DNA of 64,000 nt from a virus (lineage: Duplodnaviria; Heunggongvirae; Uroviricota; Caudoviricetes). The position numbers and the translations under genes were made by a program. The notes beneath the pieces were generated by a model, which ran no database searches, was not told where the DNA came from, and saw only the letters and a list, made by a program, of their open reading frames with translations. Shown here piece after piece: positions 4,893-13,713 of this stretch (the first letter of the stretch is position 1; each line of letters starts with the position of its first letter). The stretch is taken from positions 169,787-233,786 of IMG/VR virus record IMGVR_UViG_3300015214_000024; one strand, 5' to 3'.

Positions 4893-6452
4893 ATGAAGTT
4901 CAATACACCAGGTCAAGCACCAATTCAATCACAAACGTCACCAAATACCGTTACTCACGAAGGCGCACCATCATATAAGTTTGATTCCATTATGGAACTT
5001 TATATGGCAGTTGCGACCACACTTATGGGTGAACCAAAGTTTTATGAATCAGGTGATGAACGCGCTAAGCGCATTCGCCGTTTGATTTCCAAAGCAGTCC
5101 AATCTGGTGAAATTGAAACTGTAGCAAAGTTGGCAGTTTACTGCCGTGAAACTTTGAACCTACGTTCAGTCCCAATCTTTATCACTGTATCTTTGGCGAA
5201 GGAAATTCGTGATCAAAAGATCGCCTGGGACGGCCTCCGCCGCCTCGCTAACCGGGTTATTCAACGTGCTGACGAAGTTCGCGAAATGTTCGCTGCTGCT
5301 GAGCAAATTTTCGGTGATAACCAGAACAACAAAGTGTTTAAGCGCATTGTTCCAAAGGCTCTCTTAAAGGGCATCGGTGATTCTTTGAACAAGTTTGATG
5401 AATACCAGATTGCCAAGTACAAGGGTGGTTCAGGCGCAGTGTCGTTCAAGGACGTTCTTCGAGTCATTCACCCAAAGCCAGCTAACGAATCAAAGGGAAT
5501 TCTTTTCGCTAAGATTATGAATGATTCTTTGGCCCCAGCTGACACTTGGGAAAATAAGATCTCAAACGAAGGCTCAACGTCTGAAAATTGGCAAGAAATT
5601 GCCAATGACTCAAAGGTTGGTATTATGGCAAAGCTTCGCAATTTGCGCAACTTTGTCAAGCACAAGGTTGATTTGACAAATGTCATCGCACATTTGACCA
5701 ACCCAGTCGCAGTAGCCAACAGCAAGCAATTGCCATTCCGTTGGTACACTGCGTATCGTGAACTTGGCGGTGAAAGTATGAAGCGCAATTGGTATTACCG
5801 CGCACCAACTCCAGAAGTAGTTGCTCCAGCAAACCTTTTGGGTGCTTTGGAAGATGCTTTTGATTTGTCAATTGCAAACTTGCCAGATTTGGGTGATGAT
5901 GTTTTGATTATCGCTGACCAGAGCGGTTCAATGCAGAGCCCAATCAGTCAAAAGAGCACAGTAACTTGTGCGGAAATCGCCGCTGTTTTGGCAGCCGGTG
6001 TTTGGTTCAACCAAACACGCTTAGGTAAGCGCGCTTTTGTGGCCGGCTTTGCTGATCGCGGTAAGGTCTACTCGTGGAGCAATCGTACATCAGCTTTGGC
6101 TGCGGCTAAAGAAATGATGAATACTGAGCTTGGCGGTTCTACTCGAATTGACACGGCTTGGCAGGCTGCTAAAGCTGCTGGTTTGAAACCATCAACTATT
6201 ATCGTCTTGAGCGATATGCAGATGACGGGCTCACATTATGAGCGTTTGATGGATCCAGAAGCTTATGGCTTGGCCAATGTCAACACTCTTAAATTGTCAG
6301 TTAACCTTCAAGGTTATGACAACACGCCATTGGCTGTTAATAACGGCTGGTACCAGCTAACTGGTTGGAGTGAAAAGATCTTCAGCTTCGTTGAAGCTAT
6401 GCGCAATCCAAGCGATGCGATAAATCAGATCAAGAATTCAATCCAACTTTAA
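4893..6452 (+). CDS. rsr: Ro60/TROVE-domain RNA-binding protein with vWA domain
   Basis: RADE, KFDEYQIAKY, LRNLRN, QLPFR motifs; DQSGSM MIDAS motif. Confidence 0.92.
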   Translation: MKFNTPGQAPIQSQTSPNTVTHEGAPSYKFDSIMELYMAVATTLMGEPKFYESGDERAKRIRRLISKAVQSGEIETVAKLAVYCRETLNLRSVPIFITVSLAKEIRDQKIAWDGLRRLANRVIQRADEVREMFAAAEQIFGDNQNNKVFKRIVPKALLKGIGDSLNKFDEYQIAKYKGGSGAVSFKDVLRVIHPKPANESKGILFAKIMNDSLAPADTWENKISNEGSTSENWQEIANDSKVGIMAKLRNLRNFVKHKVDLTNVIAHLTNPVAVANSKQLPFRWYTAYRELGGESMKRNWYYRAPTPEVVAPANLLGALEDAFDLSIANLPDLGDDVLIIADQSGSMQSPISQKSTVTCAEIAAVLAAGVWFNQTRLGKRAFVAGFADRGKVYSWSNRTSALAAAKEMMNTELGGSTRIDTAWQAAKAAGLKPSTIIVLSDMQMTGSHYERLMDPEAYGLANVNTLKLSVNLQGYDNTPLAVNNGWYQLTGWSEKIFSFVEAMRNPSDAINQIKNSIQL

Positions 6453-7220: not shown

Positions 7221-7736
7221 ATGAAAACTCAAACTGTTAAAATGAATAGGGATATTAGGGAACAATCGGTTCGTCTTATTGACGAAAACGGTAACCAATT
7301 AGGAATTATGCCTACCAACACTGCTCTGAATCTTGCCGCCGAGCGAGAACTAGATTTGGTAGAAATTAATCCCGGTGAAATTCCAGTTTGTAAAATTATG
7401 GATTGGGGCAAAGAGCAGTATCGAAAGAAAAAGCTCAAGCACCAGCAGCAAATTAACAGCAAGAAACAAGAAACAAAAGAGCTGTATCTCCGACCAGTAA
7501 CTGGTGAACACGACATTCAGATTAAAGTGCGCCAGGCAATGAAGTTCTTAGAGCAAGGACACAAGGTTAAAATTGGTATGAAATTCCAAGGCCGAGAAAT
7601 GGCCCACCGCGATGTTGGCCAATCAGTTATGGAATCGATTATTGATCAATTTTCCAATCGGTCTATTGAACATATGCCATTCCGTAATAATCAAATCCAG
7701 ATCATCATTTCGCCCACACCAAGTAAGGCGAAATGA
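7221..7736 (+). CDS. infC: Translation initiation factor IF-3
   Basis: VRLIDENG..LDLVEI..PVCKIMDWGK..HD..K..FL..GHKVK..GREMAH. Confidence 0.95.
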   Translation: MKTQTVKMNRDIREQSVRLIDENGNQLGIMPTNTALNLAAERELDLVEINPGEIPVCKIMDWGKEQYRKKKLKHQQQINSKKQETKELYLRPVTGEHDIQIKVRQAMKFLEQGHKVKIGMKFQGREMAHRDVGQSVMESIIDQFSNRSIEHMPFRNNQIQIIISPTPSKAK

Positions 7737-7953: not shown

Positions 7954-8652
7954 ATGACTAATTTTGCATTTGATGTTGATGGTACTTTAACTGACAGCCG
8001 CCGGATAATTGATCCAGCATTCAAAGAATTCTTTTTAAATTTCACTAAAGAGAATACCGTATATCTAGTAACTGGTAGTGATTATCCAAAAACACTTGAA
8101 CAAGTTGGTGACGAAATACTTAATAGTGTTGAAGCTGTTTTTTGCTGTTGCGGTAATGCAGAATATCGAAAAGGCCAACTAATATCGCAAAGCGATTTTA
8201 AAGTCAATGACCAACTTCGATCGTTCTTCCTTGAAATGATGAACGAGAGCCAATTTTATCCCAAAACTGGAAACCATATTGAAGAACGAATCGGTATGGT
8301 TAATTTCAGTATTGTGGGTCGTAATGCAACTTTAGAGGACCGACAGGATTATATCATTTGGGATAAAATGACTTATGAGCGGGAAATAATTAAAAGCTGC
8401 ATTGAAGATCGGTTTGATGAACTTGAAGTTACCCTGGGTGGCGAAACTGGACTTGATATCTACCCAAAAGGAAAAGACAAGTCACAAGTTGCAGATTTGA
8501 TCAGTCCATTCATATTTTTCGGTGACCGTATTGAAGAAGGCGGTAATGATTTGACAATTGCCCAAAAAGCTACTATACACTATAATGTAAGCGGGTGGAA
8601 AGACACTTATTCTATTTTGAAAGAAAAATATACCAATGGCAAGTGTGAGTAA
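7954..8652 (+). CDS. HAD-family phosphomannomutase (eukaryote-type PMM)
   Basis: FDVDGTLT, HIEERIGMVNFS, FFGD..GGND. Confidence 0.85.
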   Translation: MTNFAFDVDGTLTDSRRIIDPAFKEFFLNFTKENTVYLVTGSDYPKTLEQVGDEILNSVEAVFCCCGNAEYRKGQLISQSDFKVNDQLRSFFLEMMNESQFYPKTGNHIEERIGMVNFSIVGRNATLEDRQDYIIWDKMTYEREIIKSCIEDRFDELEVTLGGETGLDIYPKGKDKSQVADLISPFIFFGDRIEEGGNDLTIAQKATIHYNVSGWKDTYSILKEKYTNGKCE

Positions 8653-8965
8653 AAAATTTAAAGTCAGTGGTGGAAGATACACTGGACAGGTTCATCCAGG
8701 TACTAATTCACCAGTGGTTGAATGGTTTGCGACTAATTTAGAAATGCCATCTAAGAGAGCAGCCATAAAGTGGATGAATGATAAACGCAAAGCGTATCAA
8801 GCCAGCGGTATAATGACGACTTTTTCGTATCACGAATCAATATCAAAATCATATGATATTGTAGAAGACGAAAAAGGTAAAATTAAATTATGGTGTTTCG
8901 GCCGCGGATAATATTATATCTAGCCACATTATAAATATTTGAGTATCATTTAAAGGAGTGAAAAG

Positions 8966-8986
8966 ATGACACGAACTACTAGCTGA
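8966..8986 (+). promoter_or_regulatory. Thr-rich leader peptide MTRTTS upstream of thrS
   Basis: AAGGAG RBS; ATG ACA CGA ACT ACT AGC TGA; hairpin at 8985-9020. Confidence 0.75.
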
Positions 8987-9058
8987 CCATCCAGCAAATC
9001 ACTAGGATTGTTGGATGGTCGTATTCAACATTTTCTAACGTGATTTAATAGGAGATCA

Positions 9059-10243
9059 GTGATGTTATACGATCATCGTAAAATTGGCCGAGAAATGGGC
9101 CTATTTCATATTCAAGAAGACGCCGCAGGCTCAGTATTTTGGCACCCACGCGGCTATGCACTTTACCGTAATATTGAAAATTATATTCGAATGAAACAAC
9201 TTCAGTATGGCTATGACGAAGTCAAAAGTCCACAACTGTATGATGTTTCACTTTGGAAAAAGAGTGGTCATTGGGATCACTTCAAGGAAAATATGTATTC
9301 TATTGAGGATTCAAATTTCTCCTTGAAACCTATGAATTGTCCAGGCCACATTCAAATCTTCAATTCTGACCTAATTTCTTATAAACAACTACCTTTGCGG
9401 CTGGCTGAATTTGGTTGTTGCCATCGTAATGAGCCATCTGGTGCATTACACGGTATAATGCGTGTCCGACAGTTTGTCCAAGATGACGCTCATATTTTTT
9501 GTATGGAAAACCAGATTCAATCAGAAGCATTAGCATTTTGTAAAATGCTTCAGGAAGTTTATGATGATTTTGGATTTAAAAATATCAAAGTAGCCTTAAG
9601 TCTGAGACCGGATGACCGTGCTGGCAATGACGCTGATTGGGATTTGGCCGAACAGGCATTAGAGGAAGCCATCAAGCAGGCCGGGTTTGAATACATTCTC
9701 CAGCCAGGTGAAGGTGCATTTTACGGTCCTAAATTGGAATTTGCACTAATCGACCAAGGCGGCCGTGAATGGCAATGTGGTACCATACAATTAGACTTTG
9801 TTTTGGCTGGACGACTTGGGGCAAAATATGTTGCTCAAGATGGTAGCCAAAAAGTGCCAGTTATTTTACACCGTGCAGTATTGGGTTCATTAGAACGATT
9901 TATTGGTATTCTTTTAGAGCATTATGGTAAGGATTTACCAGTATGGCTATTAAAAGACCAATTTGCTGTTTTGCCAATCAAGCCATCAGTCAATGATTAC
10001 GCTTGCAATGTGAAAGAAGCTGTGCTACAATTTGGCTTTAATGCAGAATTGGATTCTGATGATATTTCTCTTGGTGACAAGATTAAAAAATATTATCATA
10101 TTCCCAATCTCATTATTATCGGAGACCGTGAGGCTAAAAACGGCCAAGTTGTTTGGCGAAAACTTGATGGTTCACAGGAAGTTATTGATTTACATATTTT
10201 TTATGAAAAAGTGAAAAATGTGAAAAATCCGTTGAAAAAGTAA
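9059..10243 (+). CDS. thrS: Threonyl-tRNA synthetase lacking N-terminal editing domains
   Basis: DHRKIG, LKPMNCPGH, RVRQFVQDDAH, GEGAFYGPK, HRAVLGSLERF. Confidence 0.95.
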   Translation: MMLYDHRKIGREMGLFHIQEDAAGSVFWHPRGYALYRNIENYIRMKQLQYGYDEVKSPQLYDVSLWKKSGHWDHFKENMYSIEDSNFSLKPMNCPGHIQIFNSDLISYKQLPLRLAEFGCCHRNEPSGALHGIMRVRQFVQDDAHIFCMENQIQSEALAFCKMLQEVYDDFGFKNIKVALSLRPDDRAGNDADWDLAEQALEEAIKQAGFEYILQPGEGAFYGPKLEFALIDQGGREWQCGTIQLDFVLAGRLGAKYVAQDGSQKVPVILHRAVLGSLERFIGILLEHYGKDLPVWLLKDQFAVLPIKPSVNDYACNVKEAVLQFGFNAELDSDDISLGDKIKKYYHIPNLIIIGDREAKNGQVVWRKLDGSQEVIDLHIFYEKVKNVKNPLKK

Positions 10244-10244
10244 T

Positions 10245-10445
10245 TGACACGGACTAAATAGTGTAGTAAGTTTAGAACATAAGTTGAAACAAATTTTAAG
10301 GAAAGCAGTTACCATTATGTCACATTCAGTTTATCATTATGAATATGAGCGTGAATATCTCCGTCCAGGGGAGAGTTGGTAACGAGTATTTAAAATACTT
10401 CGACTGAACCGATTCAACCCTGGGACTGAAATCCCAGGGTTTTTT
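10245..10445 (+). promoter_or_regulatory. Attenuator 1: promoter, leader 10317-10382 (MSHSVYHYEYEREYLRPGESW), antiterminator and terminator
   Basis: TTGACA promoter; H/Y/E-rich ORF; AACCCTGGGA/TCCCAGGGTT-TTTT terminator. Confidence 0.85.
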
Positions 10446-10454
10446 CGTTTTTGT

Positions 10455-10531
10455 GGTGGCATAACGCAAACAGGTGAGCGGACTGACTGTGAATCAGTTG
10501 TTAGAGGGTTCAAGTCCCTTGTGTCACACCA
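10455..10531 (+). tRNA. tRNA-His(GUG), A73 type
   Basis: Cloverleaf, loop CUGUGAA, CCA. Confidence 0.9.
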
Positions 10532-10550
10532 AACATTATTGGAGTGAAAA

Positions 10551-10739
10551 ATGGAAGTATTTGTAATCAAAACTGAAGAAGTTGAACGAACGCTTAAATT
10601 TTTTACCCAATTGGGTTTAAATTTTGTTCAAGAACAACACGGTAATGGACCAATCCATTACGCTTGTGAACAAAATGGAGCAGTTTTTGAAATTTACCCT
10701 AAGGGTAAAACTGAAGGTTTTAAATTTATAGATATGTAA
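10551..10739 (+). CDS. Small VOC/glyoxalase-like protein
   Basis: FFTQLGL.F..EQHG.GP.HYA...VFEIYP. Confidence 0.65.
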   Translation: MEVFVIKTEEVERTLKFFTQLGLNFVQEQHGNGPIHYACEQNGAVFEIYPKGKTEGFKFIDM

Positions 10740-10744
10740 TTTTT

Positions 10745-10831
10745 GGGTGGTAAAAGTCAGTGGTTCTGATAGGCAGTCTGTAAAACTGCGCCTTTTCGGA
10801 GGGAGTAGTTCGATTCTACTACCACCCACCA
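10745..10831 (+). tRNA. tRNA-Tyr(GUA)
   Basis: Loop CUGUAAA, long V-arm, CCA. Confidence 0.85.
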
Positions 10832-10840
10832 AGAAATTAT

Positions 10841-10916
10841 GGTGACTGAAGTGTTGACGGATACACGCTTGGTTGTGAACCAGGAGTAACGGGCTCGATA
10901 CCCGTTGGTCACCCCA
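10841..10916 (+). tRNA. tRNA-His(GUG), G-1:C73 type
   Basis: Loop UUGUGAA, CCCA end. Confidence 0.9.
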
Positions 10917-10922
10917 AATTAT

Positions 10923-10998
10923 GCAACGGTCTTCTAATGGTTAGGAACCCTGACTTTCAATCAGGCCAATGCGAGTTCAAGTCTCGTCCGTTGCACCA
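10923..10998 (+). tRNA. tRNA-Glu(UUC)
   Basis: Loop CUUUCAA, CCA. Confidence 0.9.
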
Positions 10999-11157
10999 AA
11001 GCTTGTGCTTTGTGACCCTTCATACGCCCGAGGGTCAGAAAAATATCAGGATGCTGATACGGTATTATATACTAAAGGCATTGGGACCGCGCAGTACGCA
11101 CTACGGCTGAGTCATAAGGACTGAATAGTAGATGCTCGGTAGCGGCGAGCAAAATAT

Positions 11158-13382: not shown

Positions 13383-13476
13383 TATGAGTCAAAACTACTA
13401 AAGACGAATGGTAGAGTCAGCCCGCTCTTATACGGGATAATAGCTGGTTCGATTCCAGTTAGTAGTTTTGGCCATA
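13383..13476 (+). ncRNA. tRNA-like RNA with extended acceptor stem, no CCA
   Basis: D, anticodon and T arms closed by a ~17-bp stem. Confidence 0.6.
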
Positions 13477-13623: not shown

Positions 13624-13713
13624 AGCCAGGCGGCGGGAGTAGAACAGTGGTACTTCACCTCCATCCCAGGAGGAGATTGTAGGTTCGATTCCTACCTTGC
13701 CGCCCGTCCTGGC
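13624..13713 (+). ncRNA. tRNA-like RNA (Gly-like) with extended terminal stem
   Basis: CCUCC/GGAGG arm, GUAGGUUCGAUUCCUAC T-arm. Confidence 0.5.

Follow-up and report, generated by a model that had tools for sequence, protein, structure and literature searches.

A threonyl-tRNA synthetase (ThrRS) gene, thrS, in the 455-kb genome of a phage is preceded by a leader that carries a six-codon, threonine-rich open reading frame (ORF) and is predicted to adopt either of two mutually exclusive RNA folds. The reading that we favor, and hold to be reasonably probable, is that this leader is a ribosome-mediated translational attenuator that senses Thr-tRNA and controls the phage's own ThrRS; translation of the leader, the start of its transcript, the kinetics of folding and the direction of the response are parts of this reading that we infer. 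Ribosomes waiting for Thr-tRNA would most likely decide whether the thrS ribosome-binding site opens. The window (the whole 64,000-nucleotide stretch of DNA that was analyzed) contains the following features.

8930-8937, + strand: TATAAATA box, a candidate promoter -10-like element for a leader-thrS transcript
8953-8958, + strand: leader Shine-Dalgarno (SD) sequence AAGGAG, with a 7-nt spacer before the ORF; all relatives have GGAG unchanged, whereas the spacer varies in sequence and length
8966-8986, + strand: leader ORF MTRTTS, six codons, with ATG at 8966 and stop codon UGA at 8984-8986
8982-8993, + strand: strand opposing the thrS translation initiation region (TIR), comprising the last leader codon, the stop codon and the start of segment 1; partner of the thrS SD and spacer in fold II
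8985-8997, + strand: segment 1, 5' arm of hairpin A; the alignment shows a double change from C-G to U-A, along with five single changes that wobble pairing tolerates
8996-9007, + strand: apex of hairpin A and outer 5' strand of hairpin B (AAAUCAC, 8996-9002; UAGGA, 9003-9007)
9008-9020, + strand: segment 2, common to both hairpins, as 3' arm in hairpin A and as 5' arm in the core of hairpin B
9021-9032, + strand: segment 3, which supplies the 3' arm (9022-9030) for the core of hairpin B; partner of the thrS start region in fold I
9033-9046, + strand: outer 3' strand of hairpin B (UUCUA, 9033-9037; GUGAUUU, 9040-9046), ending 3 nt before the thrS SD
9049-9064, + strand: thrS TIR, with SD AGGAGA at 9050-9055, spacer at 9056-9061 and ATG at 9062-9064
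9062-10243, + strand: thrS, encoding a 393-aa threonyl-tRNA synthetase (Pfam PF00587, 2e-50; PF03129, 3e-10)

The threonine-rich leader and its conservation

According to Pfam, the phage ThrRS consists only of the class II core and the anticodon-binding domain and lacks the N-terminal TGS and editing domains. Residues C93, H144 and H270, which we take to be the zinc-ligand positions by reference to E. coli ThrRS, are invariant in alignment A2.

Close relatives of the locus were obtained solely by look-ups of exact proteins; a megablast search of positions 8000-11000 against GenBank phages returned no match, and neither did searches for the hairpin and leader patterns in the viral and metagenome contigs searched. 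The complete module is present in six distinct relatives with ThrRS proteins that are 76-89% identical. Its SD, ATG, ACACGAACTACTA, stop codon, both hairpins and thrS SD are common to all six, and one relative (L006) has GTG at the codon aligned with the thrS ATG at 9062. The gene upstream of the module varies, encoding IF3 in L007 and a 209- to 211-aa ORF in L009 and L010; short ORFs occupy this position in L004, L006 and the window.

In the window, the leader SD, ORF and hairpin A are placed 76 nt upstream of thrS. Threonine is encoded at codons 2, 4 and 5 of the leader (ACA at 8969-8971, ACU at 8975-8977 and ACU at 8978-8980), and ACU and ACA are the commonest Thr codons of the phage. Given a phage Thr usage of 6.6%, the occurrence of Thr at three of the five non-Met codons has a probability of approximately 0.0026. 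Across both strands of the genome, we counted 29 SD-preceded mini-ORFs enriched in one residue, a scan that yields mostly noise and was used solely as a background rate; from it, the expected number in the intergenic stretch that holds the leader is approximately 0.004. No repeat copies of the leader were found when it was compared by BLAST with its own genome.

The leader ORF is 6-8 codons long across relatives. An in-frame 6-nt duplication yields MTRTRTTS in L004, L005 and L009, the stop codon is retained as UGA or UAA, and the last codon is AGC, AGU or AUC. Within the ORF, ATGACACGAACTACTA is invariant, and all four degenerate codons are identical among relatives, compared with 16% of the thrS codons at which the amino acid is invariant; third positions of thrS are 47-59% identical. 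A conserved SD at the proper distance, an in-frame indel and a retained stop codon argue for translation of the leader. Judged from these sequence features, the view of MTRTTS as a Thr-rich micro-leader that is probably translated is supported, and the original prediction of such a micro-leader with a strong ribosome-binding site (SD at 8953-8958) before thrS holds for the window and for the module of the six relatives. A short SD-bearing upstream ORF enriched in cognate codons, as found here, is the hallmark of a leader-peptide attenuator in the broad sense. As a separate observation, ACACGAACUACUA is completely invariant at the nucleotide level, which would also suit an RNA- or protein-binding site.

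The leader and thrS probably share a dedicated transcript that would start just past the TATAAATA box. TAAATAT is invariant in the six relatives despite their diverged flanks, and 29 of 31 genomic copies of TATAAATA are intergenic, many of them upstream of an SD plus ATG.

Leaders of a similar kind occur elsewhere. A second clade comprises seven distinct phage thrS loci (approximately 58-61% identical where measured), whose leader tails hold five to seven Thr residues, as in MSRNTTTTLTTTARV and MLHVTTTTLTTTAKD, with (U)CACCAC Thr codons complementary to the thrS SD GUGGUGA. At the more distant phage thrS loci L018, L022, L024-L026, L028, L031 and L032, a Thr leader was not found; L021 (PKTTSTC) and L030 (GRTTTLK) are borderline. 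Within the same genome as the window, ileS is preceded by MKTLNLIKNIRIIKAR, an Ile-containing leader, and a His/Tyr/Glu leader with a true terminator directly follows thrS. No leader was found at serS or at one class I synthetase gene of this phage.

Alternative RNA folds at the thrS ribosome-binding site

Hairpin A is formed by the arms 8985-8997 and 9008-9020, with 13 pairs; one of them is G.U, which makes the stem perfect in + strand RNA only. Its predicted energy is -22.0 kcal/mol in the window (z -6.5 against shuffled sequences) and -15.6 to -22.0 kcal/mol in all six of six sequences (z -4.9 to -7.5), and RNAalifold recovers it with one compensatory pair. The leader stop codon overlaps its base, at the first base pair. 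Hairpin B, with a core of 9009-9017/9022-9030 plus an outer helix, reaches -17.5 kcal/mol in the window (z -4.0) and -12.8 to -19.2 kcal/mol across the six sequences (z -3.5 to -6.2). Since segment 2 is common to both, hairpins A and B are mutually exclusive; a structural alternative to hairpin A had been proposed, and hairpin B is that alternative. The leader therefore has the architecture of an attenuator: mutually exclusive structures with a common strand, the first strand being overlapped by the leader ORF. In a pseudoknot variant, hairpin A stays intact and its apex pairs with the sequence before the SD; by the methods used, this variant is indistinguishable from hairpin B.

Two complete folds can be drawn from these elements. 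Fold I combines hairpin A with helix C, which pairs segment 3 with the thrS start region (GUAU:AUAC, AACAUU:GAUGUU) and is seen in six of six sequences; it is a weak helix over the start codon (-5 to -9 kcal/mol, z near 0; 52/720 in the permutation test). Fold II combines hairpin B with a basal helix, 8982-8993:9049-9060, that covers the thrS SD and spacer. When each fold is imposed as a constraint, the two are near-equal in the window (-36.0 for I and -35.7 for II), and fold II is favored by 0.6-5.3 in relatives. Most minimum-energy folds also contain a 5-bp closing helix, GAUGA:UCAUC, between the start of the leader and thrS codons 4-5, both strands of which are invariant.

Pairing of the leader with the thrS TIR is predicted in six of six sequences, through variants of the basal helix (GCUGA:UCAGU, UCUGA:UCAGA, GCUGA:UUAGC, AGUUGA:UCAAUU and UAAUC:GAUUA). 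The helix covaries, in that cognate pairs of leader end and spacer are exceeded by only 8 of 720 permutations; the pairing of the apex with the pre-SD strand (AAAUCAC/GUGAUUU, AAAUCAU/AUGAUUU, UUUCAUAU/AUAUGAAA) gives the same 8/720, and both are weak statistics drawn from six distinct but related sequences, uncorrected for phylogeny. These results relocate the element that hides the SD. UUUUCUA (9032-9038), the anti-SD named in the original prediction, matches UAGGAGA by complementarity in the window, yet every relative lacks it; it is 8982-8993, the 3' end of the leader with the 5' arm of hairpin A, whose pairing with the thrS SD and spacer is conserved and covaries. The proposed pairing of AAAUCAC-UAGGA (8996-9007) with UUCUA..GUGAUUU (9033-9046) is real, as the outer part of hairpin B, whereas the SD-freeing role ascribed to it falls away, since the fold that contains it is the SD-closed one.

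We calculated the cost of opening the thrS site in each fold. Opening the SD costs 0.2-3.5 kcal/mol with hairpin A and 4.4-7.8 kcal/mol with hairpin B, the SD being more open with A in six of six sequences. Opening the TIR in free RNA costs 6-11.5 kcal/mol, and masking the leader end with a ribosome lowers this cost in most sequences. At equilibrium, the TIR opens most cheaply (2.2-6.9 kcal/mol) when the ribosome stands on the stop or on the codon before it, and this cost is below that for ACU pauses in most sequences; in the window, equilibrium masks at the ACU codons bring no relief (5.7-8.1 versus 6.4 kcal/mol). Barriers between folds I and II are predicted at 14-25 kcal/mol, values that were obtained with a direct-path heuristic and represent upper bounds, and hairpin A is the predicted fold of the growing transcript. 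Sequestration of a ribosome-binding site that a leader ribosome can disrupt, the mark of translational attenuation, is thus present in prediction. On whether pausing at the regulatory codons would raise downstream translation, the modeled quantities differ: the equilibrium masks are mixed, while SD accessibility by fold and the barriers favor it.

Between 8986 and 9061, no terminator-like site and no U tract were found, as had been anticipated for the region after the hairpin, and we rejected a terminator between the leader and thrS on this ground. Hairpin A is followed by GUAUUCAAC, and the base of hairpin B is AU-rich, with a U run after it in one of six sequences (UUUUUU in L010). A canonical terminator lies nearby at 10416-10450. 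The leader thus lacks the intrinsic terminator that serves as the 3:4 hairpin of a classical transcription attenuator. With Rfam covariance models, no T-box was detected across the window at gathering score, nor was a T-box, Thr_leader or any other family detected in 8850-9150 at E up to 10, and the leader is not a T-box riboswitch by this measure.

Proposed mechanism and rival explanations

In the attenuator that we propose, the transcript would begin with the well-initiated six-codon ORF, and the RNA would choose between the two exclusive folds. Hairpin A would form first, during transcription, with the thrS SD single-stranded, and because the predicted barrier is high, the fold would change mainly when a ribosome forces the change. 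A ribosome reading the leader to its stop codon, at the first base pair of A, would unwind A. Hairpin B (segment 2 with segment 3, plus AAAUCAC:GUGAUUU) could then close, freeing segment 1 together with the last codon and stop, and after release of the ribosome this leader end would pair with the thrS SD and spacer to give the off state. A ribosome waiting at ACU-ACU would halt just before hairpin A, and fold I would persist. For RNA already in fold II, the footprint of the paused ribosome, which would extend to 8986-8990, approximately 12-15 nt beyond the P site, would cover the anti-SD strand. By both routes, the thrS site would stay open longer and more ThrRS would be made when charged tRNA-Thr is scarce.

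Two features of the geometry count against this reading. The leader has only three Thr codons, and a ribosome paused on them gets no further than the first 1-5 nt of segment 1. The leaderless serS and class I synthetase genes of this phage also count against it, as do the equilibrium masks at ACU, which bring no relief in the window.

Translational attenuation of thrS had been predicted before. Sequestration of the ribosome-binding site by predicted pairing is retained from that proposal, and control by Thr decoding is the best reading; the direction of the response is presumed, and equilibrium calculations on it are mixed.

Leader translation could instead be a plain unmasking coupler without amino-acid sensing, with thrS output tracking initiation or termination capacity (e.g., release factor at UGA/UAA). 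The ease with which the TIR opens when a ribosome sits at the last sense codon or stop would suit such coupling, as would the fact that hairpin A has the stop codon at its base, and the genes with release-factor domains that lie close to thrS in relatives. We nevertheless regard it as unlikely, as it leaves unexplained the Thr enrichment and invariant Thr codons, the SD-pairing runs of five to seven Thr in the second clade and the Ile-containing leader before ileS. It also seems improbable that the mini-ORF is incidental and that a trans-acting factor (ThrRS, another phage or host protein, or tRNA-Thr) binds ACACGAACUACUA or a hairpin and shifts the folds, like the E. coli thrS operator or a T-box. 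A 13-nt block invariant at all wobble positions, near-equal fold energies with a high barrier and the complementarity of Thr anticodons to ACU ACU are all compatible with such a factor. Yet neither the sequence nor the size of the hairpin loops is constant, no NGU anticodon-like loop is conserved among them, the UGGU of segment 2 is not conserved (UGAU in L004 and L006), Rfam gives no T-box or other match at E up to 10, and the SD spacing, in-frame indel and retained stop point to translation. E. coli ThrRS requires its N-terminal domains to block the ribosome, and the phage enzyme lacks them. With variable loops and a ThrRS reduced to the core and anticodon-binding domain, the locus does not resemble an E. 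coli-type thrS operator. Candidates for an E. coli-type anticodon mimic and a T-box-like UGGN bulge were rejected as not conserved.

We give very little credence to a transcriptional or RNA-processing element, in which hairpin A or B would terminate or attenuate transcription, be cleaved by RNase III or RNase E, or stabilize thrS mRNA at its 5' end. A strong hairpin does stand between two genes, L010 has its UUUUUU after hairpin B, and true leader-plus-terminator attenuators lie nearby in the same phage. Set against this are the lack of a terminator-like site in 8986-9061, with hairpin A running into GUAUUCAAC, and the AU-rich base of B with its U run in a single sequence; moreover, neither the covarying SD/spacer pairing nor the Thr ORF would be explained.

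Returning to the attenuator that senses Thr-tRNA, we put forward a more speculative extension, which we think somewhat less likely to be right than wrong. The six-codon Thr sensor may be a ribosome-driven, kinetically trapped switch, in which the first finished reading of the leader closes the RNA almost irreversibly and the delay at ACU-ACU sets the time available for thrS initiation. Together with the ileS and tRNA-block leaders, it could form a phage-encoded regulon that gauges the pools of charged tRNA and replenishes the corresponding parts of the translation machinery.

Comparison with known leader-controlled genes

Huge phages carry synthetases, tRNAs, and initiation and release factors, the regulation of which is largely unknown. 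The leader suggests that ThrRS is not merely overexpressed and that its synthesis appears tied to the behavior of ribosomes on Thr codons, a homeostatic control of hijacked translation. We found no phage case of such bacterial-style leader control in the literature, and the present one would carry leader-peptide control beyond bacterial operons, to the translation genes of viruses. At approximately 120 nt, with a six-codon sensor and natural compensatory variants, the leader also offers an easy system for studying how ribosome position selects a fold.

E. coli pheST is a synthetase operon controlled by leader-peptide attenuation. Like thrL of the thr operon (Rfam Thr_leader) and pheM-pheST, the phage leader has a cognate-codon ORF and exclusive 1:2 and 2:3 pairings, between which ribosome position would choose. 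Unlike them, it lacks a 3:4 terminator with U tract and an Rfam match, its output would be occlusion of the SD and start codon, its ORF is limited to 6-8 codons, and its Thr codons precede segment 1 and do not fall within it. With ermC, cat and cmlA, it would share the remodeling of RBS-hiding hairpins by a leader-stalled ribosome and control purely at translation initiation. In those systems, however, the stall depends on a drug and the nascent peptide, whereas in the phage it would depend on a missing aminoacyl-tRNA, and ermC has its stalled ribosome within segment 1.

The same gene is under 5' leader control in E. coli, where the thrS operator mediates translational autorepression by tRNA mimicry at initiation, and in Firmicutes, where thrS has a T-box. 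The phage leader differs from both in having no anticodon-arm mimic or T-box sequence and a ThrRS without N-terminal domains. Small ORFs precede synthetase genes in S. lividans (thrL-thrS, leuL-leuS, trpL-trpS and alaL-alaS; PMC8079986), and leader coding sequences precede trpS and ileS in Caulobacter (PMC4117421). The S. lividans thrS leader resembles the phage leader in having a hairpin without a U tract, and its thrL has 2 Thr in 18 codons; the passages considered here give no structural model or conservation (PMC8079986). These leaders are bacterial, and sequence similarity between them and the phage leader is absent.

In the actinobacterial LEU element upstream of leuA, Leu codons of the leader pair with the downstream SD, a mechanism that is itself predicted (Seliverstov et al. 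2005, PMC1262725). Like the phage leader, the LEU element has an upstream ORF with cognate codons and an alternative inner fold, and lacks a terminator. It serves a bacterial biosynthetic gene and Leu sensing, whereas the phage leader serves a synthetase gene and Thr, and the sequences are unrelated. In the LEU element, the regulatory codons themselves pair with the SD; in the window, the last codon, stop and hairpin arm do so. The second phage clade, whose ACC/ACA codons pair with GUGGUGA, matches the LEU element closely.

The thrS locus and its Thr-rich leader

The window (bases 169787-233786 of a 455,147-bp phage record in IMG/VR) contains 56-59 tRNA genes. Two ARAGORN tRNA-like genes, at 13393-13468 (4-base 'ctta') and 13631-13705 (2-base 'cc'), have irregular anticodon loops and weak Rfam scores of 38.7 and 32.9 bits, respectively. 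The threonyl-tRNA synthetase (ThrRS) gene, thrS, and its leader neighbor TROVE/Ro-like, IF3, and phosphomannomutase-like genes. No ThrRS relative above 54% identity was found among GenBank phages.

Features of the thrS locus
4893-6452: TROVE (Ro60-like) plus VWA protein, upstream of thrS
7221-7736: full IF3, upstream of thrS
7954-8652: eukaryotic-type phosphomannomutase-like HAD protein, upstream of thrS
8953-58, + strand: leader Shine-Dalgarno sequence (SD), AAGGAG
8966 (ATG) to 8984-86 (stop UGA), + strand: leader ORF, MTRTTS
8985-8997 / 9008-9020, + strand: arms of hairpin A (segments 1 and 2), 13 pairs, the first taking the G of the leader stop codon
9050-55, + strand: thrS SD, AGGAGA
9062-10243, + strand: thrS (ATG at 9062), 393 aa, class II core and anticodon-binding domain only

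The original prediction described an SD, the peptide MTRTTS, hairpin A, and AGGAGA before thrS, and all are present. Hairpin A has a predicted energy of -22.0 kcal/mol (z -6.5) and is perfect as + strand RNA only, because one pair is G.U. The described lack of a U tract also holds, and no terminator-like site lies between leader and thrS. No Rfam family matched the leader, even at E up to 10. The phage's commonest Thr codons are ACU and ACA. We assumed the transcription start of the leader-thrS RNA from the conserved TATAAATA box. This box occurs 31 times in the whole genome, with 29 copies in intergenic DNA (17% of the genome), and several have TTGACA ~17 nt upstream; it is apparently the main -10 type promoter element of this phage.

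Conservation and two predicted, mutually exclusive folds

Looking up the exact proteins of the nearest ThrRS clusters (76-89% identity) yielded nine loci, which carry six distinct leader sequences between them. All relatives keep the TAAATAT box, GGAG, ATG, an invariant ACACGAACTACTA, the stop codon, both hairpin arms, and the thrS SD. The upstream gene differs between relatives (IF3 in L007, a 209-211-aa ORF in L009 and L010, short ORFs elsewhere); therefore, the module travels with thrS. In loci L004 (238-696), L006 (1-474), and L011 (471-929), serS and a short gene with a release-factor domain (PF00472) lie just upstream of the module; in the genome that contains the window, serS and the stop of the gene before it overlap (ATGA).

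In its sequence changes, the leader ORF behaves like coding sequence. A 6-nt duplication in L004, L005, and L009 preserves the frame (MTRTRTTS), and the ORF finishes with AGC, AGU, or AUC before a UGA or UAA stop. No change is seen in the four degenerate codons (ACA, CGA, ACU, ACU), whereas just 16% of the 240 degenerate thrS codons whose amino acid is invariant are also codon-invariant (third positions in thrS 47-59% identical). The leader is therefore also constrained at the nucleotide level, which may reflect codon choice, RNA pairing, or both.

All folds and energies at the leader are predictions. Segment 2 (9008-9020) pairs either with segment 1, forming hairpin A, or with segment 3 (9022-9030), forming the core of hairpin B, which is lengthened by UAGGA:UUCUA and AAAUCAC:GUGAUUU (8996-9007 with 9033-9046). 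Both hairpins are significant in 6/6 sequences (A, -15.6 to -22.0 kcal/mol; B, -12.8 to -19.2 kcal/mol). In fold I, hairpin A is formed and segment 3 is weakly paired to the start region (helix C, GUAU:AUAC and AACAUU:GAUGUU). In fold II, hairpin B is formed and the thrS SD and spacer (9049-9060) are base-paired to the leader's last codon, its stop, and segment 1 (8982-8993), with additional contacts extending back across the Thr codons. The two folds are almost isoenergetic in the window (-36.0 for fold I vs -35.7 for fold II), and relatives prefer fold II by 0.6-5.3 kcal/mol.

RNAalifold retrieved hairpin A, in which one pair shows a double change (C-G to U-A) and several further changes still allow wobble pairing; the hairpin B core does not vary among the six sequences. 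Despite changes, the spacer helix pairs in every lineage (GCUGA:UCAGU, UCUGA:UCAGA, GCUGA:UUAGC, AGUUGA:UCAAUU, UAAUC:GAUUA), as does the helix between the hairpin A apex and the stretch 5' of the thrS SD (AAAUCAC:GUGAUUU, AAAUCAU:AUGAUUU, UUUCAUAU:AUAUGAAA). In permutation tests on six related sequences, with statistics that ignore phylogeny, own 5'/3' strand combinations beat all but 8/720 for each of these two helices, with corresponding values of 48/720 for hairpin A and 52/720 for helix C.

A candidate ribosome-driven switch

Opening the thrS SD costs 0.2-3.5 kcal/mol with hairpin A enforced vs 4.4-7.8 with hairpin B enforced (6/6 sequences). Opening the initiation region as a whole costs 4.7-7.1 vs 6.2-14.5 kcal/mol, and 6-11.5 kcal/mol in free RNA. 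While the transcript grows, hairpin A is its minimum-energy fold up to the point at which segment 3 and the stretch before the SD have been transcribed, and the direct-path barrier between folds I and II is 14-25 kcal/mol.

Our reading of these models is that the leader would act as a kinetic switch driven by the ribosome. Hairpin A would form first, leaving the thrS SD open. A ribosome completing the leader would have to unwind hairpin A because the stop codon provides its first base pair; hairpin B would then form and, once the ribosome is released, the leader end would shut the SD. A ribosome awaiting Thr-tRNA at ACU-ACU would have its leading edge at ~8986-8990, preserving hairpin A. On RNA already in fold II, the waiting ribosome would cover GCUGA, which pairs with the spacer. 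By either route, low charged tRNA-Thr is predicted to give more ThrRS, the direction of regulation that we infer.

The rival we retain is simple coupling of thrS to leader translation. When a ribosome was modeled as a masked stretch in equilibrium folding, relief was greatest when the last codon or the stop occupied the A site (opening 2.2-6.9 kcal/mol); with ACU in the A site, relief was 1-5 kcal/mol in relatives and nil in the window. On their own, these masks would also fit simple coupling.

Related leaders and known systems

The same logic recurs in a different leader, which precedes more distantly related, truncated phage ThrRS genes (about 58-61% identity where measured; seven distinct sequences). 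The ORF upstream of these genes, a 15-codon leader in some loci (MSRNTTTTLTTTARV, MLHVTTTTLTTTAKD) and the tail of a 50-75-aa ORF in others, ends with 5-7 Thr in 8-10 codons, and its stop codon lies inside a GC-rich hairpin. The (U)CACCAC Thr codons can base-pair with GUGGUGA, the SD of thrS, and the free RNA is predicted to form a rod burying this SD. This second clade provides independent support for the proposed Thr sensing. Such a leader was absent upstream of other phage thrS genes among the more distant loci compared. At two further phage thrS loci, L021 and L030, a short ORF tail containing Thr (PKTTSTC, GRTTTLK) stops 20-40 nt ahead of thrS; these may be weak relatives of the design. 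tRNA-Thr and ThrRS are linked in a different way in L150 (LR756504.1, 332-407), from an uncultured phage of 636 kb: one or two bases separate the end of a tRNA-Thr(GGU) gene from the ATG of a truncated thrS.

Within the same genome, the region directly 3' of thrS (10244-10450) contains a promoter-like TTGACACGGACTAAATA, a His/Tyr/Glu-rich leader ORF MSHSVYHYEYEREYLRPGESW (10318-10383), a canonical terminator (10416-10441 plus U tract; site to 10450), and then tRNA genes including Glu and Tyr. The phage thus does use terminators where wanted. Outside the window (G000:C1 about 297529-297700, minus strand), a 16-codon ORF with 4 Ile (MKTLNLIKNIRIIKAR) lies ~70 nt upstream of the SD of ileS (869-aa frame), and no leader was found upstream of serS or of a class I synthetase.

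Full-text literature searches returned no account of leader-type control for a phage synthetase. In bacteria, leader ORFs ahead of synthetase genes have been reported: leader coding sequences precede trpS and ileS in Caulobacter (PMC4117421), and in S. lividans thrS follows a thrL whose hairpin lacks a U tract (PMC8079986). Among published designs, the nearest is the actinobacterial LEU element (PMC1262725): its leader ORF carries a run of Leu codons that base-pairs with the SD of leuA, and an alternative inner fold exists. Without a terminator, the phage thrS leader does not qualify as a classical transcription attenuator, and it also lacks the defining features of a T-box and of the E. coli thrS operator. 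For these reasons, we class it as a putative new variant of leader-peptide control acting on translation initiation.
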